Positions 19,391-44,494 of a stretch of 44,574 nt of DNA are shown piece by piece. How positions within the stretch are numbered: the first letter of the stretch is position 1; each line of letters opens with the position of its first letter. A program made the translations under genes and the position numbers. Source of the stretch: a phage. The DNA lies in the sequence record PX063913.1; one strand, 5' to 3'. The notes beneath the pieces are model-generated. The model was not told the origin of the DNA. It was given only the letters and a program-made list of their open reading frames with translations, and made no database searches.

Positions 19391-19533
19391 GTGCGGCGAT
19401 CCGTGATATGCTTCAGCACAACCGCTTCGAGATAGGCGGTCGGGTATTTCGCAATTACTTCGTGGCGCGTGCATGGGCGCGCCATATTGGCAAACCGGAA
19501 GGGGCAATTCGATGCTATACGTCTTCGCGGTAG
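19387..19533 (+). CDS. Small hypothetical protein (not in ORF track)
   Basis: 48-aa ORF starting in an ATGA overlap with the upstream stop. Confidence 0.3.
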   Translation: MSAAIRDMLQHNRFEIGGRVFRNYFVARAWARHIGKPEGAIRCYTSSR

Positions 19534-19613
19534 TATGTGGTGGCAGTCTGGCGGCCCTGGTGCTGTTGGCGTCGGTTATTAGTCTGGTTAAATACCTATG
19601 GGGCAGATTATGA
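19512..19613 (+). CDS. Small hydrophobic peptide (not in ORF track)
   Basis: 33-aa ORF MLYVFAVVCGGSLAALVLLASVISLVKYLWGRL with GGAAGGGG upstream; stop overlaps the next start. Confidence 0.3.
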   Translation: MLYVFAVVCGGSLAALVLLASVISLVKYLWGRL

Positions 19614-19897
19614 TTCATGATGTGATTTATTGGTTTGGTATGGCCAGCATGTTATGCCTGGTTACGGGAGTGCTGGGCGCAATATGGGTATTCCTGGTAT
19701 GGCCCGCCGTGGAAGCCGCCAGCATTACCCGCATGACGTTCGAAATATACAAGCGCCGTGGAATCACGGAGCACCCGACCAGGTTGCGCATGTGGTGGCT
19801 GTGGTATCGGGATATGATAGGCGGTCGAACATTCGAAGCCGTCCGATCATCCAGGTGGGAGTGGAAAGGCGTCGGCAAGTGGTCCATTTTCGATTAA
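19610..19897 (+). CDS. Membrane protein
   Basis: Hydrophobic segments; start taken at ATG 19610 (track ORF begins 19598). Confidence 0.45.
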   Translation: MIHDVIYWFGMASMLCLVTGVLGAIWVFLVWPAVEAASITRMTFEIYKRRGITEHPTRLRMWWLWYRDMIGGRTFEAVRSSRWEWKGVGKWSIFD

Positions 19898-19914
19898 TTA
19901 TGCAAGCGTGATAT

Positions 19915-19949
19915 AGTCCCAGTGAGCTAAAACTTACTGGGACTTTTTT
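19915..19949 (+). terminator. Rho-independent terminator
   Basis: Perfect 9-bp stem AGTCCCAGT/ACTGGGACT with 11-nt loop, followed by T6 directly abutting the holin ATG. Confidence 0.6.
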
Positions 19950-20240
19950 ATGGATAAGCTAAACGAGTGGCTATTCGCCCTAGCATGTCTGGCGGGTGGC
20001 TTCGTAGGCGCACGCATTCATGGTGAGGCTACGAAGGGGCCGCTAAACTTCGTTTTGTATGTGGTAGTCGGCTTCCTGTGTGCCATATTTGGCGCACCGG
20101 CTATTGCCGAGTGGGCTGGTTTGTCGGGTGAGCGCACTGTCGCCGGTTTGGGCTTCGTAACCGCAATCTTCTGGATGCCAATCGCCGACCGGATCAGGGA
20201 GACTATTGCGTCGTTCCGACTTCCGGGGGGTGCAAAATGA
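19950..20240 (+). CDS. Holin-like membrane protein
   Basis: 96 aa with three predicted hydrophobic helices, immediately upstream of the endolysin. Confidence 0.55.
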   Translation: MDKLNEWLFALACLAGGFVGARIHGEATKGPLNFVLYVVVGFLCAIFGAPAIAEWAGLSGERTVAGLGFVTAIFWMPIADRIRETIASFRLPGGAK

Positions 20241-20482
20241 TTATCTCCGTCCTGTTGTTTGTTATCATCGGGGCTTCGTCCCTGTTTAACGTGTATGCGC
20301 CGTCCGTCCAGGATGGCATTTTCGGTCGGGTGCTGTATCTGCTAACGGCAATGATCTGTATTATTGGACTGTTGCAAACCGGAGACGTATCTGATACCAC
20401 CTGGACCGCGTTAATCTGGCTGTTTGCATTGCGCACCCTGCGTAATGCTGTTTTGAATGGGGTAAAACATGCGATTCAGTGA
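20237..20482 (+). CDS. Second small membrane protein (holin or antiholin candidate)
   Basis: 81 aa with multiple hydrophobic helices; GGGGGG RBS; overlaps the endolysin start. Confidence 0.45.
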   Translation: MIISVLLFVIIGASSLFNVYAPSVQDGIFGRVLYLLTAMICIIGLLQTGDVSDTTWTALIWLFALRTLRNAVLNGVKHAIQ

Positions 20483-20960
20483 CAACGGTCTAAGATTCAC
20501 GGCAGCATGGGAGGCTTTCAGCCCGGTGCCGTATTTCGCGACCAAGAAAGAGCAGGCCCGCGGCCTGTACACCTGGGGTTATGGTCATACCGGCACTAAT
20601 CCGCCTCGAAGCATTACCCGCGAGGAAGCGCTGGCACTGCTCAAGCGCGATGTGGCGTATGCCGAGGATTGGGTGAACAAATACGCTCATAAGAGCATTA
20701 ACCAGGCGCAATTTGACGCGCTGGTGGACCTGGTAATCAACGCCGGTCCTGGTCCGATCGTACCGGATGACGTCGCGAATGATTTCGATGATGCGGTACG
20801 GTTGGGCGACTGGGCGAAGGTCCGTGCTACGCTGCCGCTGTTCCGCAAGCAAGGCGGGGAAGTGCTCAAGGGTCTGGTGCGCCGTGCGATCGGCAGACAG
20901 GCGTTGTTTGATGGCAAGCAGTGGGACGTTGCCGAGCGAATCGGTCGTAACGCTGCATAA
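20469..20960 (+). CDS. Endolysin, GH24 lysozyme-like
   Basis: FTAAWEAFSPVPYF...GLYTWGYGHTGT matches the phage lysozyme (T4-type muramidase) catalytic region. Confidence 0.75.
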   Translation: MRFSDNGLRFTAAWEAFSPVPYFATKKEQARGLYTWGYGHTGTNPPRSITREEALALLKRDVAYAEDWVNKYAHKSINQAQFDALVDLVINAGPGPIVPDDVANDFDDAVRLGDWAKVRATLPLFRKQGGEVLKGLVRRAIGRQALFDGKQWDVAERIGRNAA

Positions 20961-20976
20961 TACGAGGTGACACAAT

Positions 20977-21144
20977 ATGTTGAAAAGTATTCTTGATCAT
21001 AATGCGGACGCGCTTGCCGCACTGGCTAAAACCGAAGATCCGGGCGCACGCGCTATCATCGCGGACACTATCAGCCACGCTGGGGTCTTTGACGCGAAGC
21101 TGCCAAGCCCGCCACCGCCGGAAGAACCAGGCCCAGCGGCCTAA
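20977..21144 (+). CDS. Small hypothetical protein (not in ORF track)
   Basis: 55-aa ORF with GAGGTGA RBS, proline-rich C-terminus, followed by a terminator. Confidence 0.4.
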   Translation: MLKSILDHNADALAALAKTEDPGARAIIADTISHAGVFDAKLPSPPPPEEPGPAA

Positions 21145-21150
21145 ACACGA

Positions 21151-21176
21151 AGCCCGGTTAATTCCGGGCTTTTTAT
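21151..21176 (+). terminator. Rho-independent terminator
   Basis: AGCCCGG-ttaatt-CCGGGCT followed by TTTT. Confidence 0.65.
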
Positions 21177-21177
21177 T

Positions 21178-21218
21178 GCTTGACTCGCAACCAACATAGG
21201 GGCCATACTGCAACCAAT
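21178..21218 (+). promoter_or_regulatory. Promoter-like region with two TGCAACCAA motifs
   Basis: TTGACT then CGCAACCAAC and TGCAACCAAT upstream of the small ORF at 21239. Confidence 0.4.
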
Positions 21219-21238
21219 CAACGAGAGGAGTAATCAAG

Positions 21239-21319
21239 ATGGCACGTAAAGATATTTGGGTATTAGCGATCTGGACCACCGCGGCTTTTATCGGCATGGT
21301 TATTTGCGAATTGATATAG
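21239..21319 (+). CDS. Small hydrophobic peptide (not in ORF track)
   Basis: 26-aa ORF MARKDIWVLAIWTTAAFIGMVICELI with strong GAGAGGAG RBS. Confidence 0.4.
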   Translation: MARKDIWVLAIWTTAAFIGMVICELI

Positions 21320-21380
21320 CCCGCCGCCATATGGACCGTGGTATATTGTCCACGGTCCACTAATCAGGGATTAATTAAAT

Positions 21381-22523
21381 ATGCACCCGCAAACTAAAAT
21401 TACCGATGAGCAATTGATCGCAGAAATTCAGGCAGGGACTACGGTTAAAGAGATTGCGAAGAAATACGGCATTGCACTTCGAAATGTCTACATGCGAAAA
21501 GCCCGCCTGTCGAAGAAAGGGATTGGTCACGGTAACGATGCCGTAATCCGTAAGCGCGTTGCCGATGGCTTTGGCGTTAAGCGCGTATCCGCCCTGGTGC
21601 GCGGCAATGGCGAAGAGGTCATGTCGTGGGTTATCACTGAGCAGGACAAGGAGCGACAGCTTGAAGCAATGCGCGCCGTTGTCGATGGCATGAACAGCGA
21701 AATCACACCGGCAGCACCAGTAAGCGCCACGCCTATCCCGATCCAGGCACTTGACCTACTCAACCTGTACACCGTGTCCGACTTCCACCTGGGCATGTTG
21801 GCATGGGGTGAGGAGACTGGCGAGGACTGGGATATGGCAATCGCTGAAGACTTGTTTTACCGCTGGTTTGTCGAAGCCTTCGCCCGCGCACCCGACGCGG
21901 GAACTGCCGTTATCAATATCCTCGGAGATATGGCCCACTTTGATAGCCTCGACGCCGTCACACCAGCAAGCGGTCACGTACTGGACGCCGACACCAGATA
22001 CCAGAAGTTGGTCCGCTATATGATCCGCATGGTGCGCAACGTGGTAGACCTGGCGCTGCAAAAACACCACAAAGTCAAACTGCTAATCGTCCAGGGTAAT
22101 CATGACGAATCGGGTATGATTTGGCTTGCTGAGATGTTCAACACGCTGTACGAGAACGAGCCGCGCGTCGATGTGGACACGTCCCCGGACGTCTACAAAA
22201 TGGTGCAGCACGGTAAGACCACGCTATTTTTCCACCACGGGCACAAAGCGCGATTCGATGCTATCGAGCAGGTTATGATCGCTAAATTCAGACAGGCTTT
22301 CGGATCCAGTGAGTACAGCTACGCGCACGTAGGCCATTTGCACCACCAGAAGATTGTCGAGTCCCGCAACATGATTGTTGAGCAGCACAGGACGCTCGCA
22401 GCGAAAGACGCCTACGCCAGCCGTGGTGGTTGGATGAGCGGTCGCAGCGCAAACGTCATCACCTACAGCGCCAACTACGGCGAAGTAGCGCGCTTAACCA
22501 TTAGCCCGGAAATGTTGAAGTAA
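21381..22523 (+). CDS. HTH domain fused to calcineurin-like metallophosphoesterase
   Basis: N-terminal TVKEIAKKYGIALRNVYMRKARL (HTH-like); phosphoesterase motifs LGDMAHFD, VQGNHDES, FHHGH. Confidence 0.6.
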   Translation: MHPQTKITDEQLIAEIQAGTTVKEIAKKYGIALRNVYMRKARLSKKGIGHGNDAVIRKRVADGFGVKRVSALVRGNGEEVMSWVITEQDKERQLEAMRAVVDGMNSEITPAAPVSATPIPIQALDLLNLYTVSDFHLGMLAWGEETGEDWDMAIAEDLFYRWFVEAFARAPDAGTAVINILGDMAHFDSLDAVTPASGHVLDADTRYQKLVRYMIRMVRNVVDLALQKHHKVKLLIVQGNHDESGMIWLAEMFNTLYENEPRVDVDTSPDVYKMVQHGKTTLFFHHGHKARFDAIEQVMIAKFRQAFGSSEYSYAHVGHLHHQKIVESRNMIVEQHRTLAAKDAYASRGGWMSGRSANVITYSANYGEVARLTISPEMLK

Positions 22524-22544
22524 CGGCAACCCATAAGCCTCCAA

Positions 22545-22569
22545 GCCCGCCGATTTGGTGGGCTTTTTT
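22545..22569 (+). terminator. Rho-independent terminator
   Basis: GCCCGCC-gattt-GGTGGGC (one G-U pair) followed by T6. Confidence 0.55.
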
Positions 22570-22653
22570 GTGCCTGTTATAATCCACCTTAGATGGCAGG
22601 GCCGTCTCCTATGTTGCCGATGGTCGGCGCATATGAACAAAAGGGCTTATATC

Positions 22654-23205
22654 ATGGCAGAAATCAAAGTTAAGGGCCGACGCGCCAAACTGGACGGACG
22701 AGTAGCAGTAACCCCGCGCCGTAAACCAGGCGAGCAAACCGAGCATACCAATCTCGGACCTGAAATCGAGTACGGAAAGCGCCGTAAAGGCGGCAAATGT
22801 GGACGCCCTACTGACTACCGATCCGTTTACTGCGACCAGCTTCGCCGCTATTTTGCCGACGCCGACGCCTGGCAGGTCAACTACTCCGATAAAGGCGCTG
22901 CGCAAGTAATCCCACGCAACAAAATGCCAACCTTCGGGCGATTTGCCGCGGAAATCGGCGTGGGCGTCGCTTGCCTGTATCGCTGGGCGCGTGCGCATGA
23001 GGAGTTTGCCGAGGCGATGGCGGACGCAATGGAACTGCAGAAAACCTTCCTGATGGAAGCTGGCGGGGTGACCATCGCGGCGGGCTTCGCTACATTCCTG
23101 CTTAAAGCAAACCACGGCGTCCGCGACGATGTCCCGCTGGATGACGACGAAGATGATAACGGCGACGTCGTTGTCGAACCTACCGGCAAAGGCCAGGGCG
23201 AATAA
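22654..23205 (+). CDS. terS: Terminase small subunit
   Basis: Start taken at MAEIKV (ATG 22654), downstream of the terminator; FGRFAAEIGVGVACLYRWARAHEEFAEAMADAMELQK resembles TerS; directly precedes TerL. Confidence 0.7.
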   Translation: MAEIKVKGRRAKLDGRVAVTPRRKPGEQTEHTNLGPEIEYGKRRKGGKCGRPTDYRSVYCDQLRRYFADADAWQVNYSDKGAAQVIPRNKMPTFGRFAAEIGVGVACLYRWARAHEEFAEAMADAMELQKTFLMEAGGVTIAAGFATFLLKANHGVRDDVPLDDDEDDNGDVVVEPTGKGQGE

Positions 23206-24601: not shown

Positions 24602-26122
24602 ATGACCGTTAACGTTGACAACCAGCACCCGCTCTATGCTCGCATCGCGCCAGAGTGGAAAATGATCCGTGACTGCGTAGCAGGGGAGCGCGCCGTGAAG
24701 GCGTGCGGGCCATTGTACCTGCCACACCCAGCCAGCGGCGACACTACCGACCCGAAATCGCGTGCGCGCTATAAGGCGTATAAGCAACGTGCAGTCTTCC
24801 TTAACGCCACTGCCCGCACACTGAATGCACTGTTAGGCGTCGCCTTCGCCAAACCGGTGAGTATGGACCTTTCCGGGGCAATGGCTGACCTGATCGAAGA
24901 CGTAGACGGCAGCGGGATGCCCCTGGCGCAACTCCTGCGCGGCGCTATGTCGGAAGTGCTGCAATCAGGCCGTGCCGGGTTTATGGTCGACTACGACCGC
25001 CAGGCGCATTTTGACGAACTGGGTAACGTAGTACCGCAGACCGCCGCTGAAATGGCAGCACACCGCCCGCTTATCCGCCTGTATACGGCTGAACAGATCA
25101 TCAACTGGCGGCAGACCCACGGCGTCGATACGCTAATAGTGCTGAAGGAGACGGACGAAATCAGCACCGAAGACCCGGACGACTTCGCAAACCACGAAGT
25201 AACGATCTGGACCGAGCTTCGCATGATTGCAGGTAAGGCCCACGCCCGCCGCTGGTTTTACAATGCGGACACGTCAGAAGTGCAAATGGACTTGCCGCGA
25301 GGATTCACCCGCACCGATCTCGTACCGCTGGTGGATGCTGCCGGTAATGCGCTTACTCAACTGCCATTTTGCTGGTGTGGTGCTGTGGACAACAACGCGA
25401 CGCCGGACGCCGCACCGCTGGCGGATATTGCGTCCATCAACATTAAGCACTACAACGCCGAAGCAGACGTCGCCGAGATTGCGCACATTGTGGGCCAACC
25501 TACACTCATTGCGACCGGTCTGACCCAATCATGGGCGGATAAAAACCTGAAGGGTGGCATCGCGCTCGGGGCAACTAAGGGCGTTATCCTGGGCCAGAAC
25601 ATGGACGCTAAACTGCTTCAGGCGGAGGAGAGAAACCTGTCAGTTGCGCTGTGTGAGCGACGCGAGTTGCAAATGGCTAAACTGGGCGCGGCCCTGGTCG
25701 AGAAGGGGACCGCACCTAAGACGGCAACTGAAGCGGCCTACGATGCGCAGACTGATAACAGTATCCTGTCACTGATTGCCGGTAACGTTGAGAAGGCTTT
25801 CAACCGTGCGCTGCAGATCGTCAAGCTGTTCACGGGAGACACCGCAGATCAACGTGTAACGCTGAATAAGTTCTACACCGAAATCACGGTTGACGCGCAG
25901 CTTATGACCGCAATGATGGCTGGTGTGCAGACCGGTACGGTCCGTCTGGCGGACTTTATCAAGTGGATGATGGCCCAGGGCGTTATTGACGACTCGCAAA
26001 CCGTCGAGCAGGTGGAAGACGAACTGCGAAATCAGAATCCATTGCCTCAAATGTCCCCGGATGCGGTAGAATCGACCGAAGAAGCCCCGGACAAGGTAGC
26101 GGACAATGGCGAAGACAATTAA
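24602..26122 (+). CDS. Portal protein
   Basis: 506 aa immediately after TerL; N-terminal YARIAPEWKMIRDCVAGERAVKACGPLYLPHP resembles DUF4055-type portals. Confidence 0.75.
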   Translation: MTVNVDNQHPLYARIAPEWKMIRDCVAGERAVKACGPLYLPHPASGDTTDPKSRARYKAYKQRAVFLNATARTLNALLGVAFAKPVSMDLSGAMADLIEDVDGSGMPLAQLLRGAMSEVLQSGRAGFMVDYDRQAHFDELGNVVPQTAAEMAAHRPLIRLYTAEQIINWRQTHGVDTLIVLKETDEISTEDPDDFANHEVTIWTELRMIAGKAHARRWFYNADTSEVQMDLPRGFTRTDLVPLVDAAGNALTQLPFCWCGAVDNNATPDAAPLADIASINIKHYNAEADVAEIAHIVGQPTLIATGLTQSWADKNLKGGIALGATKGVILGQNMDAKLLQAEERNLSVALCERRELQMAKLGAALVEKGTAPKTATEAAYDAQTDNSILSLIAGNVEKAFNRALQIVKLFTGDTADQRVTLNKFYTEITVDAQLMTAMMAGVQTGTVRLADFIKWMMAQGVIDDSQTVEQVEDELRNQNPLPQMSPDAVESTEEAPDKVADNGEDN

Positions 26123-27209
26123 TCAATATATGGCGGATCGCATGATTCGCCGTCACATCTTCACCCAGCGCCTGAGCAATGACCAGGCGCGGAGGGTGTT
26201 GGCTATGTGGGAGAAGTTCCGGCCCACGTTACTGGGTAAGCTGACCGAGTTACTTGATGGTAAAAAGTCCATGAGCAACAAGGCGCTTACCACCCTGTTA
26301 ACGCAACTCGACAAGACCGTAAAAACGGAACTGCGCACCGAGTTTAAGGTGCTGGCTGAAAGCCTCCAGGAGTTTGCCGATACCGAGGCTGATTATCTTG
26401 CCGACACGCTAACGGCAGCGATCCAGCCGGTGGTCGCCGTACCGGCTGTCGAGGTGGTTGGCGTAGTTACCGGTGCGCAGATCGCAGCGACTGCGATGAA
26501 AAACCCGTTCCAGGGTAATACGATGATGCAATGGCCCGATTCATTGTCTGAGTGGACCAGGACGCAGATCGGCAATCAGGTGCGCGCCGGATTCATCCAG
26601 GGCAAGCCGACTATGGAAATTATCGCTGACGTGAGGCGCGCGCTAGGCGGTCGTAGTGCGCAAGCTATCTCGAGCGTTGTTAAATCCGCAGTAAACCACT
26701 ATGCGGCGACCGCCCGCGAACTAATGGTAAAAGCAAATGACGATATTCTCGAAGGTCGCCAATGGTTATCTACATTGGACACGCATACTTCTCCCATGTG
26801 CCAGCTACGCGATCGCCTGTTTTATCCGGTTGATGTTACTCCCGACACCAAAGGAAAGCGCGGCGGGAAAGTGGTGGCTGGATCACAATATGGCGCTGGT
26901 CCAGGCAAGCTACATTATTGCTGCCGCTCGACGGAGACGTGGAAAGTCAAAGGTATGGAAGATTGGCCCAGTGGTAAGCGTCCGGCACTGAAGGCCGACG
27001 CAGGCAGATTGCTGAGTGAGCAGGTCGACGCGCAGACGGATTTCTTCTCATGGGTACAGCGCCAGCCGCGCCATATCCTGGAAGAATTATACGGAGTGCA
27101 ACGCGCCGACCAGATTATGCGCGGCGTGAAAGTGCCGAAGATGTTCACCGATTCCGGCGAACTAATGACTATCGCACAGCTTAAAAACCGGGGGTTATGG
27201 CGTGATTAA
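26106..27209 (+). CDS. Head morphogenesis protein (Mu F / SPP1 gp7-like)
   Basis: Position after the portal; region around TSPMCQLRDR...CCRSTE resembles the Phage_Mu_F family. Confidence 0.6.
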   Translation: MAKTINQYMADRMIRRHIFTQRLSNDQARRVLAMWEKFRPTLLGKLTELLDGKKSMSNKALTTLLTQLDKTVKTELRTEFKVLAESLQEFADTEADYLADTLTAAIQPVVAVPAVEVVGVVTGAQIAATAMKNPFQGNTMMQWPDSLSEWTRTQIGNQVRAGFIQGKPTMEIIADVRRALGGRSAQAISSVVKSAVNHYAATARELMVKANDDILEGRQWLSTLDTHTSPMCQLRDRLFYPVDVTPDTKGKRGGKVVAGSQYGAGPGKLHYCCRSTETWKVKGMEDWPSGKRPALKADAGRLLSEQVDAQTDFFSWVQRQPRHILEELYGVQRADQIMRGVKVPKMFTDSGELMTIAQLKNRGLWRD

Positions 27210-27531
27210 ATATGCAGCGATTGGACTGGTTATCGGTCTGGCGATAGGATTCTGGCTAGGCGACTCCTATCGCGCTGGCGTAGTGGCGGAGGCGGCGCAA
27301 GAAGCGCAAGCCCAAGCCCAACGGCAGCAAACTAAAGTAATCGAGCGCTCCGTGCAGGCAGAACAAGCCCGCGACGTGGAATACCGGACTATCACAAAAG
27401 AGGTTGTTAAATATGTTACGCGTCCTAACCGCCCTGATTGTAGTTTTGACGCTGAGCGCGTGCGGATCAAGCAGCGTGCCGTTGACGCCGCTAACGGAGT
27501 CGGCACTGCGACCGCCGTGCAAGTTCGATAA
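27202..27531 (+). CDS. i-spanin (Rz-like)
   Basis: GTG start; N-terminal transmembrane helix AAIGLVIGLAIGFWLG followed by a Q/A-rich coiled-coil-like region; the o-spanin is embedded in the +1 frame. Confidence 0.6.
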   Translation: MIKYAAIGLVIGLAIGFWLGDSYRAGVVAEAAQEAQAQAQRQQTKVIERSVQAEQARDVEYRTITKEVVKYVTRPNRPDCSFDAERVRIKQRAVDAANGVGTATAVQVR

Positions 27532-27643
27532 CCCGTCTGCGGACCCCGACGAAGATTTGATGATTGACGTGAAAAATATGGAATGCGGGGCGAAGCTGAG
27601 GGCGCAGGTGTTGGAGTTGCAGCAGATAATTAAGGGGCCGTAA
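27413..27643 (+). CDS. o-spanin (Rz1-like outer-membrane lipoprotein)
   Basis: ATG 27413 with AAGAGG at 9 nt; lipoprotein signal MLRVLTALIVVLTLSAC with lipobox LSAC; proline-rich mature part; overlaps and extends past the i-spanin. Confidence 0.6.
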   Translation: MLRVLTALIVVLTLSACGSSSVPLTPLTESALRPPCKFDNPSADPDEDLMIDVKNMECGAKLRAQVLELQQIIKGP

Positions 27644-27654
27644 TGGCCCCTTTT
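27634..27654. terminator. Bidirectional rho-independent terminator
   Basis: GGGGCC-gtaat-GGCCCC then TTTT; sits between the convergent o-spanin and the minus-strand gene. Confidence 0.65.
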
Positions 27655-27657
27655 CCG

Positions 27658-28422
27658 TTAGCGAGGAATGCCGCAAATCTCGTTGAGTGTTTTCACATCC
27701 AGCGCCACCGCCGTGGATTTTGGCTTGTCCGGGTAAGGGATGAATTGCTCAACTTCAGGCCATGCCTTGATCAGCTTCTTATCGGTATTGTGCATATCCA
27801 GCACGCCGGTAACAGTTAGTTTGAACGCGTCATACTTAGCCCGCAACTCGCGGCGGGCCTTGTCGTTACGGTCCAGGCGCTTGCAGAAATCATGGTCCGC
27901 CGGGTAGTCTATACGGCCGCGTGGCTTATATATCGGCAGCGCTTTCCCATCCTCGTCCAACTCGCACACTGACGCTAACATAATTTCCTCATACCCAGGT
28001 ACGATATCGCCGAGATCAGGAGACAGCTTATTCATGTATTTATACTCCCAGTATCCGCGATGTACGCGGTATTGGCGACCGTCACCGCTCAAGGACAAGG
28101 TGCGAACATTTCCGCCTGCGTTGATTTCGAAAGTGGCGTCGTAAACGCTGCCGATACCTTTCGGGCGGTCGGTGTTATAACTATACGTCGCCTTGTTGGT
28201 GTATACACAGACGCCGTACATCTGCGACGGGTCATCGCCGATTGCTTCAATGCGCGCGAGTAGCTCGGCGAACGTGCGAATGCCTTCTGGCATACAGTCC
28301 AGCGTAATGGCGTACGCCAGGTCGCGCGAGTCCATCATTATTGATTTGGCTTCTGTCGCGATTTCGTGGTCGCGCAGGATGTTAGCCAGGATCTGATTTT
28401 TAATGTCTTTCGTCAGTCTCAT
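27658..28422 (-). CDS. Hypothetical protein, reverse-oriented gene inside the structural module
   Basis: 254 aa from ATG 28422 (MRLTKDIKN..., GAGGA upstream); own promoter region with ATTGGTTGCA motifs and a bidirectional terminator; no recognisable motifs. Confidence 0.55.
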   Translation of the reverse strand: MRLTKDIKNQILANILRDHEIATEAKSIMMDSRDLAYAITLDCMPEGIRTFAELLARIEAIGDDPSQMYGVCVYTNKATYSYNTDRPKGIGSVYDATFEINAGGNVRTLSLSGDGRQYRVHRGYWEYKYMNKLSPDLGDIVPGYEEIMLASVCELDEDGKALPIYKPRGRIDYPADHDFCKRLDRNDKARRELRAKYDAFKLTVTGVLDMHNTDKKLIKAWPEVEQFIPYPDKPKSTAVALDVKTLNEICGIPR

Positions 28423-28444
28423 TTTTGTGTCCTCGTTGTTGGTG

Positions 28445-28469
28445 TGCAACCAATATATTGCAACCAAGA
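28445..28469. promoter_or_regulatory. Divergent promoter region with two TGCAACCAA motifs
   Basis: TGCAACCAAT-atat-TGCAACCAAG between the minus-strand gene (start 28422) and the scaffold gene (start 28572). Confidence 0.4.
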
Positions 28470-28571
28470 CAAGGATGGCAAGCTAATTTTGCGATTATTT
28501 TTATCGCTGATAATATTAGAAGCGTGAAGTCGAGCGGGTGGCCTGCTCTGCCACAATCCCAGGGGGATAGC

Positions 28572-29273
28572 ATGAAACTTACTAAAGCAGAATATGACGC
28601 GTTGCCGGAAGGTATGAAGGCGCTTTTTGTTGCCGATGGTGACGGGTATAAATCAACGTTCATGACCGCCGAAGAAGTACAGGCGGAGATCAAGGGTCTG
28701 AAAGACAACAACGCGAAGCTGGTTAGCGAGAAGAAAGCAGAAGCCGAACGCCGCGCCGAAGCCGAGCGCCTTGCGAAAGAGAAAGAGGAAGCCGCCGCGC
28801 GCAAAAATGGCGACCTCGAAGCGATCGACAAGTCCTGGAAAGATAAGTTTGCAAAACACGAAGCAGACACATCGGGAAAAATCGAAGCCTACCGCAAGCA
28901 GATCCACGATCTAACCATCGGCAGCGCTGCCAAAGACCTGGCGTCGAAGCTGTTCGGTAAGAATGCGGGCATCATGCAACGCCACGTAATGGACCGCCTG
29001 ACGCTGGAAGACGGCGAAGACGGCAGCTTGAAAGTGCGTGTCTTGCAGGATGGCAAACCGTCCGCGCTGACTATGGAAGAGCTTGAAAAAGAGTTCCGTA
29101 ATAACGCCGATTTTGCATCCGTCCTGGCTGGCACGCCAGCCGGTGGTGCGCCGAGCAAACCGACGCATGTTGTCGAAGATGTGAAGTCGAAAATCTCTAT
29201 GGGCCACAGCTTCGGCATCACCGATCTGACGAAACAGGCTGGTGAAATCATCGCTAAAATGGGCGACGAGTAA
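28572..29273 (+). CDS. Scaffolding protein (putative)
   Basis: Start at MKLTKAEYD (ATG 28572, GGGGGA upstream); charged, E/K/A-rich; sits between the morphogenesis gene and the capsid gene. Confidence 0.55.
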   Translation: MKLTKAEYDALPEGMKALFVADGDGYKSTFMTAEEVQAEIKGLKDNNAKLVSEKKAEAERRAEAERLAKEKEEAAARKNGDLEAIDKSWKDKFAKHEADTSGKIEAYRKQIHDLTIGSAAKDLASKLFGKNAGIMQRHVMDRLTLEDGEDGSLKVRVLQDGKPSALTMEELEKEFRNNADFASVLAGTPAGGAPSKPTHVVEDVKSKISMGHSFGITDLTKQAGEIIAKMGDE

Positions 29274-39227: not shown

Positions 39228-39835
39228 CCACGTTTAAATTGTACGGCGTCTTAGGGCGTCGTTTTGGTAAAGTGCATAAGCTGGACTGCTTCACACCGGG
39301 AGAAGGCATCACCGGCCTGTGTGTGAAGTTACCCGGCTTACAGGACTTTCTAATGTCTGCCCACCTGGACAATATGATGTTCAAGGTGCGCAAAGGCAAC
39401 CACACGATGTCCGGCTATGATGAACTGGGCGAGTTCCACGGCAACCGCGTCGTTACCATCGCGCCGGTTATGACTGGCGCAAAAAGCGGATTGGGCCAAT
39501 TGCTGGCGGGTGTCGCGATCGTAGTGGCGTCGTTCTATACGGGCGGACTTGCTACTGCCGCTTTCGGGGCTTCGGCGGCAACCGCTGCCGCTATCGGTAC
39601 AGCGACGTTTTCGTTTGGCATGTCGCTTGCGCTTGGCGGTGCTATGCAATTGCTCTCGCCACAGCCGAAAGGATTGCAGACACGGCAGGACGTGGATAAC
39701 AAAGCGTCGTATGCGTTCGGCGGACCGGTAAACACGACCGCACAAGGTACGGCACTTGGTGTATTATGGGGCGAGCGTGAGATCGGCGGCGCTATTATTT
39801 CAGCCGGAATCGTAACCGAGGACTTGAACGAATGA
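39218..39835 (+). CDS. Tail assembly protein, lambda gpI-like
   Basis: N-terminus MAMTTFKLYGVLGRRFGK and a glycine/alanine-rich hydrophobic C-terminal region; sits between K-like and J-like genes. Confidence 0.7.
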   Translation: MAMTTFKLYGVLGRRFGKVHKLDCFTPGEGITGLCVKLPGLQDFLMSAHLDNMMFKVRKGNHTMSGYDELGEFHGNRVVTIAPVMTGAKSGLGQLLAGVAIVVASFYTGGLATAAFGASAATAAAIGTATFSFGMSLALGGAMQLLSPQPKGLQTRQDVDNKASYAFGGPVNTTAQGTALGVLWGEREIGGAIISAGIVTEDLNE

Positions 39836-42800
39836 CGATTGTCTATGACGTCACAGGCCATAAAGGCGGCGGTGGAAAACAGCACACCCCACAGGAGACA
39901 CCCGATAGCCTGCATTCTCTGGCTAAAATCCGCATCTTGCTTGCGCTGGGAGAAGGTGAGTTCGAAGGTATTCCAGACCCTAACGAATTACGGCGGCGCG
40001 TATATCTGGACGGAACACCGATCCAGAATGCAGACCTGTCTGAAAACTTCCCCGGCGCGCGTGTGGAGTTCCGCCCCGGAACACAGCACCAGGATGTGAT
40101 CCACGGATTTTCAGCGGTGGAAAGTGAGCAATCTGTCGGCGTAAAGCTGGAAAACGGCACGCCGTGGGTGCGCCAGATTAACGACACCAGTTTGGACGCC
40201 GTGCGCATTCGCATCGGCATTCCTGCCCTGTACACAAACGAAGATAATGGCGACCTGGTGGGCGGGCGCATCGACTATAAGATCGTTGTGTATACGGATA
40301 ACGCGGACCCGCGTGAGTTCAGATTCGCCGCCGTTGGTAAAACAATGTCGCTATATGAGCGCGACCACCGCATCGAATTACCGCCGAACGTTAACACCGG
40401 CTGGCGCGTGGAGATGCACCGCATAACGGCAGACTCCACATCGGCGAAAGTGGTTAATGATATCCAGGTGCAATCCATCACTGAGATTATTGACGCCCGC
40501 CTGCGTTATCCGCTAACCGCGCTGTTGTTCGTGGAGTTCGACGCTAAAGCGTTCCAGAACATCCCGCGCGTGTCCATTAAGTGCAAAGGTCGCAAAGTTC
40601 TAATACCGAACAACTACGACCCGATTAATCATACTTATTCCGGGGACTGGGACGGCACGTTTAAACGCGCATGGACGGATAACCCTGCGTGGCACTGGTA
40701 CGATATTTGTATTACTGAGCGCTTCGGACTCGGTCGGCGTATCAAACCGCAAATGTTAAACCGGTACGCGCTCTACCAGATTGCGCAGCGCTGCGATCAG
40801 TTGGTCAGCGACGGCAACGGTGGTCGAGAAATCCGCTTTAAGAATGATATGTACATTCAGTCACAGACGGATGCCTGGACCGTGCTTAAGGATTTGGCTG
40901 CCATCTTCGCCGGAATGACCTGGTGGGGCAACCAGATGTTGAATATCGTCAGTGACCAACCGGTCGCAGCAGTGTCGCATACTATCACCAACGCATCTGT
41001 TATTGATGGGCGATTCGACTACGCATCTGGCAGCCAGAAAACTCGCTATTCCACATTCGCGGTAGCATACGGCAATCCGAAAAACCACTATGATGACGCT
41101 ATCGCAACGGGCCAGCGCGTCGAACTGGTGCGCCGCCATAAGATTAACCGTCTTGATATTACGGCGATCGGCTGTACGCGCGAGTCAGAAGCGCAACGCC
41201 GCGGGCACTGGGCGCTAATATCCAACCAGCTTGACCAGCAAGTTAGTTTTAAGGTTGGCATGGAGGGGTTATTCTTTATCCCAGGTAGCGTAGTCGCGAT
41301 CGCGGATACAAACATTTCTGGCGGATTCGAGACTCGCGGAGGTCGCCTGTTGTCGGACCCCGGAACGCGTACCGTGCTGAACACGGACAGCGAAATCACA
41401 TTCCGCCCTGGTGATAAGTTCCTGGTGCGCACCGATAGCGGTAATGTGGAGGCCCGCGAGATCGCCAGCGTCAACGGCAACAAGGTCACGCTAAAAACCG
41501 CACTGGATGCCGACCCGATCCCAGATCAGCCGTTTTGTGTTGATGGAGATGATATCCAGTTGCAGAAATTCCGCATCACCGATCTGGAATATGACGACTC
41601 TACCAGCACTTTCTCGGTGCGCGGGATTGAATACAACGATAGCAAGTATGATGCCGTTGATAATGGCGCTCGCCTTGACCCAGGCATCTTTACGCAAGTG
41701 CCGGACGGTGTAATGAAGGGGCCAGAATCCGTGACCATCACCCCGTCGCAGATTTCATCGCAAGGCCAGCTAATCACCAACGTGGATATTGTTTTCCCGC
41801 CGGTGAAAGATGCCGTGGTGTATGAAATACAGTGGAGGCGTACTAGCCTGCAGAATATGGAGATCCAGTGGGGTAACGACTGGGTGAATATCCCGCGCAC
41901 GGCGTCGAATGGGGCGCACATCCCTAACGTGTTCTCCGGTAACTATCAGGCACGCGTCCGCGCAATTGGTATGGGCGAAATCTCGTCCCCGTGGGTGTCT
42001 TCCGCGATCACGCCGGTGGAAGGTCGCCTCGGTGGGCTTAACGCCCCAATCATCACCAACGCGATTTCGGGTCTGCACCAGATTCTATGGAAGTGGAACC
42101 ACAACAACGCTGCGACTGATATCTCATACACCGAGCTTGAAGTGCGCAAGACGGGTGAAACGGAATGGAAATTCTTAACAAACGTCCCCTATCCTGGCGC
42201 GGAGTACGCGCAAACGTCGCTGGAGTTCGGCATATACCAGCAGTTGCGCGCCCGTGTAGCGGATAAAATCGGCAACCTGTCGGACTGGTCCGCCCCGTTC
42301 GAAGGCCAGGTGAGTGACAAAGTTGACGAGTACATGAAGGGGCTTGATGACGAGTTCTTGACTTCTGAGGATGGTAAACACTTCCAGGAAGCTATTAACA
42401 CGATCCCGCAAGGCATTTATGAGTCAATGCTCACCGACGCCCAGCAGCTATTCAACGCCCGCGCCGAGTACAAAGGGATTTACGCAGAAATCAAGGTCGC
42501 ATATAACGTGGCGGCAGACGCCCACAAGGCCGTCGCGCAACTGGAAACGTTGATCGGCACTCGCCTTGACGATGCGGAAGCGGCAATCCACACGTTGCAG
42601 ACAGCGCAAAGCACGCACGAGCAAGCATTCGCCCAGTATCAGCAAACTGTTGCCGCTAAGTTTGGGGAACAGGACGCCGCCATACAGCAGGTACAAACGG
42701 CAACGGCGGACGTGGCTGGCGCACTGGCGGAGTACAAGACCCAGGTGGCGGCACAGTTCGGTCAGCAGTCTGCAGCTATCGAGCAGAAGATGACGTCTTC

Positions 42801-43278
42801 GTTTAACCATGCTGGTGGCAGCGCAACATATAGCCTTAAGGCGGGCGTGACGTATAACGGGGCTTACTACGACGCCGGTATGCAGCTTTCCGTCGTTGCG
42901 GAAGGCGGCGCGGTTAAATCACGCATCGCGTTCAAGGCGGACCAGTTCTACATCATGCACCCGTCGAATGGGTCGCTTTCGTCCGCGTTTATTGTTGACG
43001 GCGGACAGGTGTACATTGACACCGCACGCATCAAGAATGCGTCCATCAACTTCGCACAGATCACGGACACGCTGCAATCAAATAACTTCGTTACAGGGTC
43101 GCGCGGCTGGCGTATCTGGAAGGATGGCGGTGCGGAGTTTAACCAGGTAACGGTACGCGGCAACCTGTACGCCACATCCGGTAACTTCGGATTCTCAGGT
43201 GGGACCGTGACTATCGACGCAACTGGCGTCAACGTGCCATTACCTGGCGGGGGCAGGGTGAAAGTCGGGACGTGGTGA
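39832..43278 (+). CDS. Central tail fibre / host specificity protein, lambda gpJ-like
   Basis: 1148 aa, last gene of the tail operon, ATGA-coupled to the I-like gene. Confidence 0.85.
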   Translation: MTIVYDVTGHKGGGGKQHTPQETPDSLHSLAKIRILLALGEGEFEGIPDPNELRRRVYLDGTPIQNADLSENFPGARVEFRPGTQHQDVIHGFSAVESEQSVGVKLENGTPWVRQINDTSLDAVRIRIGIPALYTNEDNGDLVGGRIDYKIVVYTDNADPREFRFAAVGKTMSLYERDHRIELPPNVNTGWRVEMHRITADSTSAKVVNDIQVQSITEIIDARLRYPLTALLFVEFDAKAFQNIPRVSIKCKGRKVLIPNNYDPINHTYSGDWDGTFKRAWTDNPAWHWYDICITERFGLGRRIKPQMLNRYALYQIAQRCDQLVSDGNGGREIRFKNDMYIQSQTDAWTVLKDLAAIFAGMTWWGNQMLNIVSDQPVAAVSHTITNASVIDGRFDYASGSQKTRYSTFAVAYGNPKNHYDDAIATGQRVELVRRHKINRLDITAIGCTRESEAQRRGHWALISNQLDQQVSFKVGMEGLFFIPGSVVAIADTNISGGFETRGGRLLSDPGTRTVLNTDSEITFRPGDKFLVRTDSGNVEAREIASVNGNKVTLKTALDADPIPDQPFCVDGDDIQLQKFRITDLEYDDSTSTFSVRGIEYNDSKYDAVDNGARLDPGIFTQVPDGVMKGPESVTITPSQISSQGQLITNVDIVFPPVKDAVVYEIQWRRTSLQNMEIQWGNDWVNIPRTASNGAHIPNVFSGNYQARVRAIGMGEISSPWVSSAITPVEGRLGGLNAPIITNAISGLHQILWKWNHNNAATDISYTELEVRKTGETEWKFLTNVPYPGAEYAQTSLEFGIYQQLRARVADKIGNLSDWSAPFEGQVSDKVDEYMKGLDDEFLTSEDGKHFQEAINTIPQGIYESMLTDAQQLFNARAEYKGIYAEIKVAYNVAADAHKAVAQLETLIGTRLDDAEAAIHTLQTAQSTHEQAFAQYQQTVAAKFGEQDAAIQQVQTATADVAGALAEYKTQVAAQFGQQSAAIEQKMTSSFNHAGGSATYSLKAGVTYNGAYYDAGMQLSVVAEGGAVKSRIAFKADQFYIMHPSNGSLSSAFIVDGGQVYIDTARIKNASINFAQITDTLQSNNFVTGSRGWRIWKDGGAEFNQVTVRGNLYATSGNFGFSGGTVTIDATGVNVPLPGGGRVKVGTW

Positions 43279-43285
43279 ATGCGAA

Positions 43286-43306
43286 GGGGCCAGATGGCCC
43301 CTTTCT
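43286..43306. terminator. Bidirectional rho-independent terminator
   Basis: GGGGCC-agat-GGCCCC followed by TTTCT, between the convergent J gene and the minus-strand gene. Confidence 0.6.
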
Positions 43307-44270
43307 AATACATGTTAGGGATGACTAGTAAAGGTGTGGGTACGGTCACATTACGATTAGGCATCTGGAATTGCTGCCGTGAGTAGTTACCGATCACGCG
43401 ATTTCGTGCCGCGCTAACCACGTTGCCAGCCATGCGTATCCCGTTCATTCGCACGTGGTTGTATCCGCTGTTGTTCTCAATGAGCGCGCCGGTATATGAG
43501 AGCTGTACGAGGCTGTTGCCAATATTCTGACCACCAGTGCTGATATTAATTACGGAATTGAGGACAAACGGCTTATTCACCGTGGAGAACGTGACCTGGC
43601 CCTGGTTGTTAGTCATGGTAATGCCGGTCCCCGGTGCTGGCGGCGTATTGTTGAAGATCACCAGGTCCATATCCACCGAAGCCGCCACATCGTCAATACC
43701 ACCATAGGACGCGTTGCGGACGATAATACTACCGCCGTCGAATCCTACCGACACGTTGCCGTCATCCCAGCGCGCGAACGGGATGCCACCCACCGGCAGC
43801 GGCATACTGCCGTTTACACGCACGCGCTGCGCGTATCGGCAGGTCATTAGCCGGGATACGTTCGATATCGCGGTGAAGTCAGTCGAGTTCGCCACCAGTA
43901 AGCCAGCATTGCGCGACCCAACCGGCAGCACTTCCATAATTATCCCAGCCCATTGCGGAAGACCACTGTATGCGTTATACGCGTCCGCACCTCGTAGAAT
44001 AATGCCGTTATCCCCGTTACGTTGTACAGACGTAACGTAGAATGGGTCCGGGAGCACCAGCGTTTGGTCGAAGACCTCAATCACTTCTACCGGACGCGTG
44101 AGCGCAACGACAAGATCCGACCCTGGGGTTAGCGGAGTATTAATGGTCAGCGTCTTATCGGACTGGCAGCGCTGATCAAACGTAGTGCAGTATGACGGAG
44201 CGCGAAGTCCGGCGGTTATCTCCATCACCGGCCTTCCGTCGTTGTAGTCTATAAGTATTCCAGCGCCCAT
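43305..44270 (-). CDS. Candidate receptor-binding protein
   Basis: 321 aa from ATG 44270 with GGGAG at 8 nt spacing; Gly/Asn/Ser/Thr-rich; sits 2 nt downstream of the lipoprotein gene on the opposite strand to gpJ, as in T5-type RBP-Llp loci. Confidence 0.45.
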   Translation of the reverse strand: MGAGILIDYNDGRPVMEITAGLRAPSYCTTFDQRCQSDKTLTINTPLTPGSDLVVALTRPVEVIEVFDQTLVLPDPFYVTSVQRNGDNGIILRGADAYNAYSGLPQWAGIIMEVLPVGSRNAGLLVANSTDFTAISNVSRLMTCRYAQRVRVNGSMPLPVGGIPFARWDDGNVSVGFDGGSIIVRNASYGGIDDVAASVDMDLVIFNNTPPAPGTGITMTNNQGQVTFSTVNKPFVLNSVINISTGGQNIGNSLVQLSYTGALIENNSGYNHVRMNGIRMAGNVVSAARNRVIGNYSRQQFQMPNRNVTVPTPLLVIPNMY

Positions 44271-44272
44271 AA

Positions 44273-44494
44273 TTACCACTCCCGAGATTTAACTGATACC
44301 GTACCAGAGAAGTTGCCGTCACTATCCGCGGACAGGCCGGTGAAGCGCATGTCAACATCCCCGGCAGGGGCTTTTTGCCCGTCAACGTAGCGCAACATGC
44401 AGCTACCGTAAGCGACCGTAATGCAATCGCCGTTGTTACGTTCTACCGCACAGCCGGACAGAAGAACCGCACAAATCACAATTAATGTTTTCAT
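44273..44494 (-). CDS. Small lipoprotein, candidate superinfection-exclusion protein (Llp/Cor-like)
   Basis: ATG 44494 with AGGGGA RBS; signal peptide MKTLIVICAVLLSGC with lipobox LSGC; mature part about 54 aa with two further cysteines. Confidence 0.55.
   Translation of the reverse strand: MKTLIVICAVLLSGCAVERNNGDCITVAYGSCMLRYVDGQKAPAGDVDMRFTGLSADSDGNFSGTVSVKSREW

Follow-up and report, generated by a model that had tools for sequence, protein, structure and literature searches.

A predicted two-component spanin of the Jersey family, placed among the head genes of a Dhillonvirus genome

The genus Dhillonvirus comprises the HK578-like siphoviruses, which infect Escherichia coli and Shigella. 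Kongari et al. 2018 have placed the spanins of HK578, JL1, SSL-2009a, EK99P-1, EP23, and SO-1 in the "Jersey" families of overlapped i-spanins and o-spanins (PMC6139136). A shorter subfamily, which runs from EP23 to SO-1, is described with two predicted helices, and two constant Cys residues are found in the o-spanins (PMC6139136). A split of the lysis genes has been published for Jerseyvirus SeF1, which has the same four PHROG families as the genome we describe here: phrog_2359 and phrog_2508 for the holins, phrog_2536 and phrog_5672 for the spanins, numbered as Gp9/10 vs Gp63-65 (PMC9409062). The numbering is also split in Dhillonvirus vB_EcoS_P78, where genes 31/32 are the holins, gene 33 is the endolysin, and gene 40 is the spanin (PMC12677095). 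Outside these genera, the spanin genes of T4 are found at a distance from those for its holin and its endolysin (PMC6139136), and they are therefore a precedent for unlinked spanins.

The genome we have analyzed (PX063913.1) is a single stretch of 44,574 nt, which we call the window. As judged by DNA identity, it is a Dhillonvirus genome, that is, an HK578-like coliphage siphovirus. The 3.5 kb surrounding the spanin locus are 94-95% identical to many Dhillonvirus genomes, for example StarDew, Zumzum, and JLBYU60, and 159 phage records match this region at the DNA level. In KarlBarth/Bas17, which also belongs to Dhillonvirus, the genes found at the same position were annotated as i-spanin and o-spanin by the BASEL authors. 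Rz-like spanins are annotated at the same position in Salmonella phage Jersey (Jerseyvirus) and in Bas75, from the Kagunavirus-type K1 group. The spanin pair is an already known, annotated feature of a well-sampled genus. Its position among the head genes, at a distance from the holin and endolysin genes, is confirmed by our analysis, but it has already been annotated and published for this group of phages.

The products of the two genes very probably form a two-component spanin, which belongs to the overlapped Jersey family already described in the literature. We propose this function because of their homology and their architecture. The features of the locus and of the lysis cassette are shown in Table 1.

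Table 1. Lysis genes, neighbouring genes, and hairpins in the window.
Feature	Position	Strand	Details
Holin	19950-20240	+	phrog_2359
Second holin-type small membrane protein	20237-20482	+	phrog_2508
GH24 endolysin	20469-20960	+	PF00959, phrog_7
Terminator-like hairpin with T-run	21149-21172	+	3' of the lysis cassette; -16.3 kcal/mol, z -3.9
Terminator-like hairpin with T-run	22543-22565	+	just 5' of the small terminase gene; -17.1 kcal/mol, z -3.1
Head morphogenesis gene	26106-27209	+	5' neighbour of the i-spanin gene; phrog_241
i-spanin	27202-27531	+	GTG start, 109 aa; predicted N-terminal TM helix; phrog_2536
Ribosome-binding site of the o-spanin gene, GAGG	27400-27403	+	9 nt 5' of the ATG, within the i-spanin coding sequence
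o-spanin	27413-27643	+	ATG start, 76-aa precursor, predicted 60-aa mature lipoprotein; lipobox LSAC; phrog_5672
GC-rich hairpin GGGGCC-GTAAT-GGCCCC with T-run	27631-27651	both	overlaps the o-spanin stop codon; extendable by A-T pairs
Nmad5 gene	27658-28422	reverse	between the o-spanin and scaffold genes
Scaffold gene	28572-29273		phrog_206

The i-spanin has only one hydrophobic stretch, at residues ~3-20 (KYAAIGLVIGLAIGFWLG), where the Kyte-Doolittle mean over 19 residues is 1.92. Beyond this segment the protein is polar, Ala, Gln, and Glu are abundant, and the only Cys is found at position 80. It is predicted to have a type II topology, with one N-terminal TM helix and the remainder in the periplasm. 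We infer the orientation; the positive-inside signal for a cytoplasmic N-terminus is weak, with one Lys before the helix and one Arg after it. The protein is short, and would have ~88 periplasmic residues. A single-sequence AF2 model, of low confidence (mean pLDDT 60), suggests helices at residues 3-72 and 84-97, joined by a linker which contains Cys80. This outline agrees with the two helices described for the i-spanins of the EP23-to-SO-1 subfamily (PMC6139136). The i-spanin gene shares its first 8 nt, GTG included, with the end of the head morphogenesis gene, where the stop codon of the latter is found. A GGGGG string lies 7 nt upstream of the GTG. Because of this overlap, translation of the i-spanin is probably coupled to that of the head morphogenesis gene.

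The o-spanin reading frame lies in the +1 frame, offset by 211 nt from the i-spanin start. The two genes overlap over 119 nt, and the o-spanin gene extends 112 nt past the i-spanin stop. Its product begins with MLRVLTALIVVLTLSAC, followed by Gly at +2. We have assessed the lipoprotein signal by sequence pattern; a lipoprotein prediction had been called for in a preliminary description of this DNA, and the pattern gives an LSAC lipobox, with Cys17 as the lipobox Cys and the Gly at +2 just mentioned. A lipobox Cys with no Asp at +2 is the pattern of a signal peptidase II substrate. In enterobacterial lipoproteins, Gly at +2 directs sorting to the outer membrane by the Lol pathway. The mature protein has seven Pro residues, as well as Cys36 and Cys58 in addition to the lipobox Cys. 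The same pattern has only three other matches in the six frames of the whole 44.6-kb window, therefore, for any one gene of 330 nt, a chance match which begins within it and on the right strand should occur in about 1 of 100 cases.

These results agree with the preliminary description, which had proposed a gene for a type-II membrane protein and a proline-rich lipoprotein gene with an LSAC lipobox, embedded in its +1 frame and running beyond its end. Both genes are found exactly where they had been placed, and their location between head morphogenesis and scaffold genes is confirmed by the phrog_241 match upstream and the phrog_206 match downstream. The Nmad5 gene on the reverse strand, between the spanin pair and the scaffold gene, is not mentioned in that description.

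Comparison with PHROG profiles places both proteins in families labelled "Rz-like spanin". The i-spanin matches phrog_2536 over residues 1-108, with E 4.5e-36, and the o-spanin matches phrog_5672 over residues 32-76. The o-spanin also matches a third family with the same label, phrog_1267, with E 1.4e-11. Tblastn searches with the spanins find matches in Jersey, K1-type, and Dhillonvirus members. On the other hand, neither spanin matches any Pfam model at E <= 0.1, including those for lambda Rz and Rz1. No family match is found for either of them in NCBIfam, where the sole match is to the LptM lipoprotein signal model (E 0.039), and neither matches a solved structure in a sequence search of the PDB. 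The basis of the assignment is therefore the match to PHROG families, whose label itself comes from annotation, together with architecture and context. The preliminary description had called this a classic Rz/Rz1 arrangement. This is right for the architecture; the sequence family is a different one, as the lack of a match to the Pfam lambda models indicates.

We have taken the criteria for the spanin class from Summer 2007 and Kongari 2018. An o-spanin gene should be embedded in the i-spanin gene, overlap it, or follow it immediately, and here it overlaps in the +1 frame. At least one periplasmic Cys is expected, and three are present, Cys80 in the i-spanin and Cys36 and Cys58 in the o-spanin. 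Spanin genes are usually, though not obligatorily, linked to those of the holin and endolysin. Such linkage is absent here: The i-spanin gene starts 6.2 kb downstream of the endolysin stop, and the spanin pair sits in the head module.

In order to follow both reading frames, we have compared the locus in 19 sequences which differ at the DNA level: that of the window, three from GenBank, and fifteen from IMG/VR. Both frames are open in all of them, with the same GTG and ATG starts and the same 211-nt offset in the +1 frame. The lipobox Cys and the three periplasmic Cys residues named above are invariant, and so is the form of the lipobox, [LM][ST]AC-G. The AAAGAGG string upstream of the o-spanin ATG is also kept in all 19 sequences. 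Compared with the 18 other loci, which are of the Dhillonvirus type, the proteins of the window are 77-97% identical for the i-spanin and 74-97% for the o-spanin. The i-spanin has two length forms, 109 aa (with a 119-nt overlap, as in the window) or 102 aa (with a 98-nt overlap), because the position of its stop codon shifts within the overlap.

The variable sites are unevenly distributed among codon positions. In the part of the locus which codes only for the i-spanin, positions 1, 2, and 3 have 23, 11, and 45 variable sites of 70. In the part which codes only for the o-spanin, the corresponding values are 13, 5, and 23 of ~36, so that the third position dominates. In the overlap, changes which alter both proteins are depleted: They are 12 of the 45 changes observed, vs 165 of the 357 possible ones (46%), with a chi-square of ~7.7 for 2 degrees of freedom (p ~0.02). 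This variation fits coding in both frames.

These data bear on a different reading of the locus, in which the 109-aa membrane protein is the sole product and the lipoprotein frame is a chance ORF which is not translated. Many gene callers do miss the o-spanin, and several GenBank records annotate a single gene or a truncated o-spanin. However, neither the ATG nor its GAGG, 9 nt upstream, nor the lipobox Cys changes among 19 sequences, and past the stop of the i-spanin most of the variation falls on third positions of the o-spanin frame. An overlapped ORF with a lipobox also persists in relatives with an i-spanin identity of only 34-47% in the matched part, and the match to phrog_5672 has E 2.5e-26. 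We consider a chance ORF to be extremely improbable.

The lysis cassette is found elsewhere in the window, and consists of two holin-type genes and the endolysin gene. The hydropathy profile of the endolysin has no N-terminal hydrophobic segment or membrane anchor, therefore the enzyme is predicted to be soluble and dependent on the holin, and not of the signal-anchor-release type. A lenient lipobox scan of 19400-22700 finds no ORF with a lipoprotein signal. A strict scan of the whole window gives no second spanin candidate, either unimolecular or lipoprotein, near the cassette or elsewhere. The only other lipoprotein gene of the window matches PF24052, is weakly Cor-like, and lies beside the tail-tip genes. 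The PHROG and PF00959 matches and the lipobox scans thus support the earlier description of this cassette as two small membrane proteins and a GH24 endolysin with no spanin. We have also considered as a lysis component the 55-aa ORF which follows the endolysin gene (20977-21144), and we have rejected it, since neither a membrane segment nor a lipoprotein signal is found in it. This ORF corresponds to the N-terminal part of a protein which bears an Ig-like domain in KarlBarth.

The position of the pair, between the head morphogenesis and scaffold genes, is common to three genera: Dhillonvirus, Jerseyvirus, and Kagunavirus. In KarlBarth and in Jersey, the holin-holin-endolysin cassette is near the opposite end of the linear map, 5' of the terminase genes, and the window is alike. 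The location of the pair might suggest an envelope system with another task, such as superinfection exclusion or assistance to head assembly at the membrane, in a phage which has no spanin or opens the outer membrane by another route. The pair is found among head genes and is probably coupled in translation to one of them, and exclusion systems also contain pairs formed by an inner-membrane protein and a lipoprotein. In addition, we have found in the literature no experiment on the Jersey spanin family, either complementation of lambda Rz/Rz1 or knockout.

More distant relatives from IMG/VR, with 34-47% identity over the matched part, speak against such a task. In four of the five which have a usable context, the pair is directly after or near an endolysin-type gene. 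In two of them (L022 and L023), the phrog_2536/phrog_5672 pair directly follows a holin (phrog_198), a second holin (phrog_217), and an endolysin (phrog_181), all of them confirmed by PHROG matches. In two others, an i-spanin homologue and the lipobox ORF which overlaps it are close to an ORF resembling an endolysin, or follow it directly; these we have recognised by eye. In a further relative (L027), the lipobox ORF is entirely within the i-spanin homologue. A separate Cor-like lipoprotein is already present beside the tail-tip genes of the window, and overlapped genes, a Pro-rich lipoprotein, and conserved periplasmic Cys residues are the signature of spanins (PMC6139136). A task other than lysis is, in our opinion, very unlikely. 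The association with endolysin-type genes in distant relatives supports a lysis role for the spanin pair, and shows that its position in the head module is a derived state, common to Dhillonvirus, Jerseyvirus, and Kagunavirus.

It might be speculated that the move of the spanins to the end of a string of packaging and early head genes is adaptive and not neutral. The dosage or timing of the spanins would then follow head production and be independent of a holin which is gated separately, a distinct design for lysis regulation. A very stable hairpin, 5 nt 5' of the holin start codon, does sequester the only SD-like bases. In the library searched, we have found no paper which discusses why this spanin family occupies the head module, and we regard an adaptive origin as improbable.

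The spanins are the last two genes of a string which runs through terS, terL, portal, and head morphogenesis genes, and the next gene is convergent. The GC-rich hairpin at the end of the o-spanin gene was missed by our terminator pattern scan, and was recovered by folding and by comparison of relatives. For the + strand its folding energy is -19.3 kcal/mol, with z -3.6; for the - strand it is -18.1. The hairpin and its T-run are present in all 19 sequences. It is probably a bidirectional terminator, which would close the terS-to-spanin string and also serve the convergent Nmad5 gene.

Two other hairpins with a T-run lie between the lysis cassette and the spanins. Both are conserved in KarlBarth, at 42439-42460 and 42995-43015, respectively, and they are kept there in spite of the fact that the genes between them differ from those of the window. 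A promoter-like site follows the first of these hairpins (21180-21209), and is also conserved in KarlBarth. These elements make it more likely that lysis functions are split between separate transcription units, a proposal which is plausible but unproven. On the other hand, all the genes between the holin and the o-spanin, both included, are on the + strand, none of them being reversed, and no strong sigma-70-like promoter is found just 5' of the small terminase gene. Holin, endolysin, and spanins might then be part of one long late transcript which reads through the hairpins, so that lysis would not be split. The late transcript of lambda reads through its terminators, and a very strong hairpin with a T-run is found right before the holin gene of the window, which suggests that terminator read-through belongs to the late regulation of this phage. 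With two conserved hairpins in its path and a promoter-like site after the first one, a single transcript seems to us doubtful, and we keep separate units as the preferred reading.

If the pair functions in the same way as lambda Rz/Rz1, the i-spanin would be placed in the inner membrane and its helical domain would extend into the periplasm. Lipidation of the o-spanin would take place at Cys17, and the protein would then be directed to the inner leaflet of the outer membrane. Both proteins may bind through their C-terminal parts, and could form dimers linked by disulfides through the conserved periplasmic Cys residues. The complexes would bridge the periplasm, where the peptidoglycan mesh would hold them back. 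After triggering of the holin at 19950, the soluble GH24 endolysin would degrade the wall, and the complexes, now free, would fuse or disrupt the outer membrane and complete lysis. Spanins do no harm until the wall is gone, so they would only have to be expressed before the holin fires, and a distant position of their genes would be tolerable.

Beyond correct annotation, the significance of these results is small. In many GenBank records of Dhillonvirus, one or both spanin genes appear as "hypothetical protein" or the o-spanin is truncated, and our results may help in cleaning up these annotations. For those who engineer these phages or delete lysis genes, it is useful to remember that the lysis system extends beyond the holin-endolysin cassette. 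The locus is also a further example, besides T4, of spanin genes which need no location next to the holin.

In summary, the closest known system is the short subfamily of the Jersey family, which corresponds to phrog_2536 and phrog_5672. It coincides with our pair in genus, proteins, overlapped +1 architecture, the two Cys residues of the o-spanin, and position, with no difference of substance: The i-spanin of the window has 109 aa and that of some relatives has 102 aa. L022 and L023 have proteins of the same families, with 37-39% identity for the i-spanin and 35-38% for the o-spanin, and the same overlapped architecture. However, their pair is in the canonical place, after the two holins and the endolysin and upstream of the small terminase gene, and their endolysin belongs to a PHROG family different from that of the GH24 enzyme of the window. 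In T4, the spanin genes pseT.3 and pseT.2 are separated instead of overlapped and belong to another sequence family; its holin and endolysin genes are also unlinked from each other, whereas in the window both stay together. Lambda Rz/Rz1 resembles our pair in having a type II inner-membrane protein and a small Pro-rich outer-membrane lipoprotein in the +1 frame, with periplasmic Cys residues, and the mechanism is presumed to be the same. The differences from lambda are the lack of detectable Pfam similarity, the full embedding of the Rz1 gene as opposed to the overlapped genes of the window, the separation of our spanins from holin and endolysin, and the length of the i-spanin: Lambda Rz has ~150 aa, and the i-spanin of the window is shorter.

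The i-spanin of this phage and its relatives exists in two forms, of 109 and 102 amino acids (window 27507–27531; GenBank locus L004 and IMG/VR loci L012 and L017–L019). The stop codon shifts within the overlap with the o-spanin gene, and the o-spanin sequence there is retained. The i-spanin can evidently do without its extreme C-terminus, as this comparison shows.

Other features of the genome are listed in the Table. The head module is broken up by the reverse-strand Nmad5 gene, with the spanins on one side and the scaffold gene on the other. Its start is likely the ATG at 28422. Several relatives, including Zumzum, JLBYU60 and HK1, have about 360 extra bases in this region; in Zumzum, the one record examined, they hold two further small minus-strand genes. 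Just after the J-like tail-tip gene comes a pair of minus-strand genes, in which the lipoprotein gene overlaps the start of the DUF6453 gene. This locus (43305–44494) is probably related to superinfection exclusion or to the receptor.

Features of the phage genome (window coordinates)
Feature	Position	Strand	Remarks
Pre-holin hairpin	within 19915–19950	+	12-bp stem, then six T; −24.1 kcal/mol, z −6.6
55-aa ORF with RBS	20977–21144	+	directly 3' of endolysin gene
First terminator-like hairpin of slot	21149–21172	+	
Promoter-like site in slot	21180–21209	+	
26-aa peptide ORF	21239–21319	+	single helix; good RBS
380-aa gene	21381–22523	+	phrog_704 "DNA repair exonuclease"; weak calcineurin-like phosphoesterase matches
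Second terminator-like hairpin, end of slot	22543–22565	+	
Small terminase, mechanical ORF	22555–23205	+	start TTG 22555
Nmad5 gene	within 27658–28481	−	full-length PF18757 (nucleotide-modification associated), 2.9e-56
Sigma-70-like promoter	28481–28452	−	TTGCCA-18-TATATT, 10/12 match
J-like tail-tip gene	39832–43278		
DUF6453 membrane protein gene	43305–44279	−	
73-aa lipoprotein gene	44273–44494	−	PF24052 "Phage lipoprotein family"; weak Cor-like PHROG match

The hairpin and T-run ahead of the holin gene end 5 nt upstream of its ATG (19950), and the sole SD-like bases, GGGA, lie within the 3' arm of the stem. KarlBarth, an annotated Dhillonvirus relative, keeps the hairpin at 40957–40986 of its own genome, apart from a single change in the loop. 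The hairpin might terminate transcription ahead of the lysis genes, gate translation of the holin, or do both. At the other end of the lysis cassette, the 55-aa ORF matches amino acids 1–46 of KarlBarth bas17_0063 at 98% identity, a 137-aa protein which runs on into an Ig-like domain: Only the N-terminal part of such a protein is present here.

The lysis cassette and the small terminase gene are separated by a conserved slot (21149–22565, +), in which the first hairpin and the promoter-like site are followed by the 26-aa peptide ORF, the 380-aa gene and the second hairpin. The TTG start of the mechanical small terminase ORF falls within the second hairpin of this slot. The PHROG match begins only at residue 37 and the KarlBarth gene codes for 183 amino acids, both of which point to a real start probably some 100 nt downstream of this TTG. 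As for the slot itself, KarlBarth retains both hairpins and the promoter-like site with small genes different from those found here, which makes it look, from this comparison, like a moron site.
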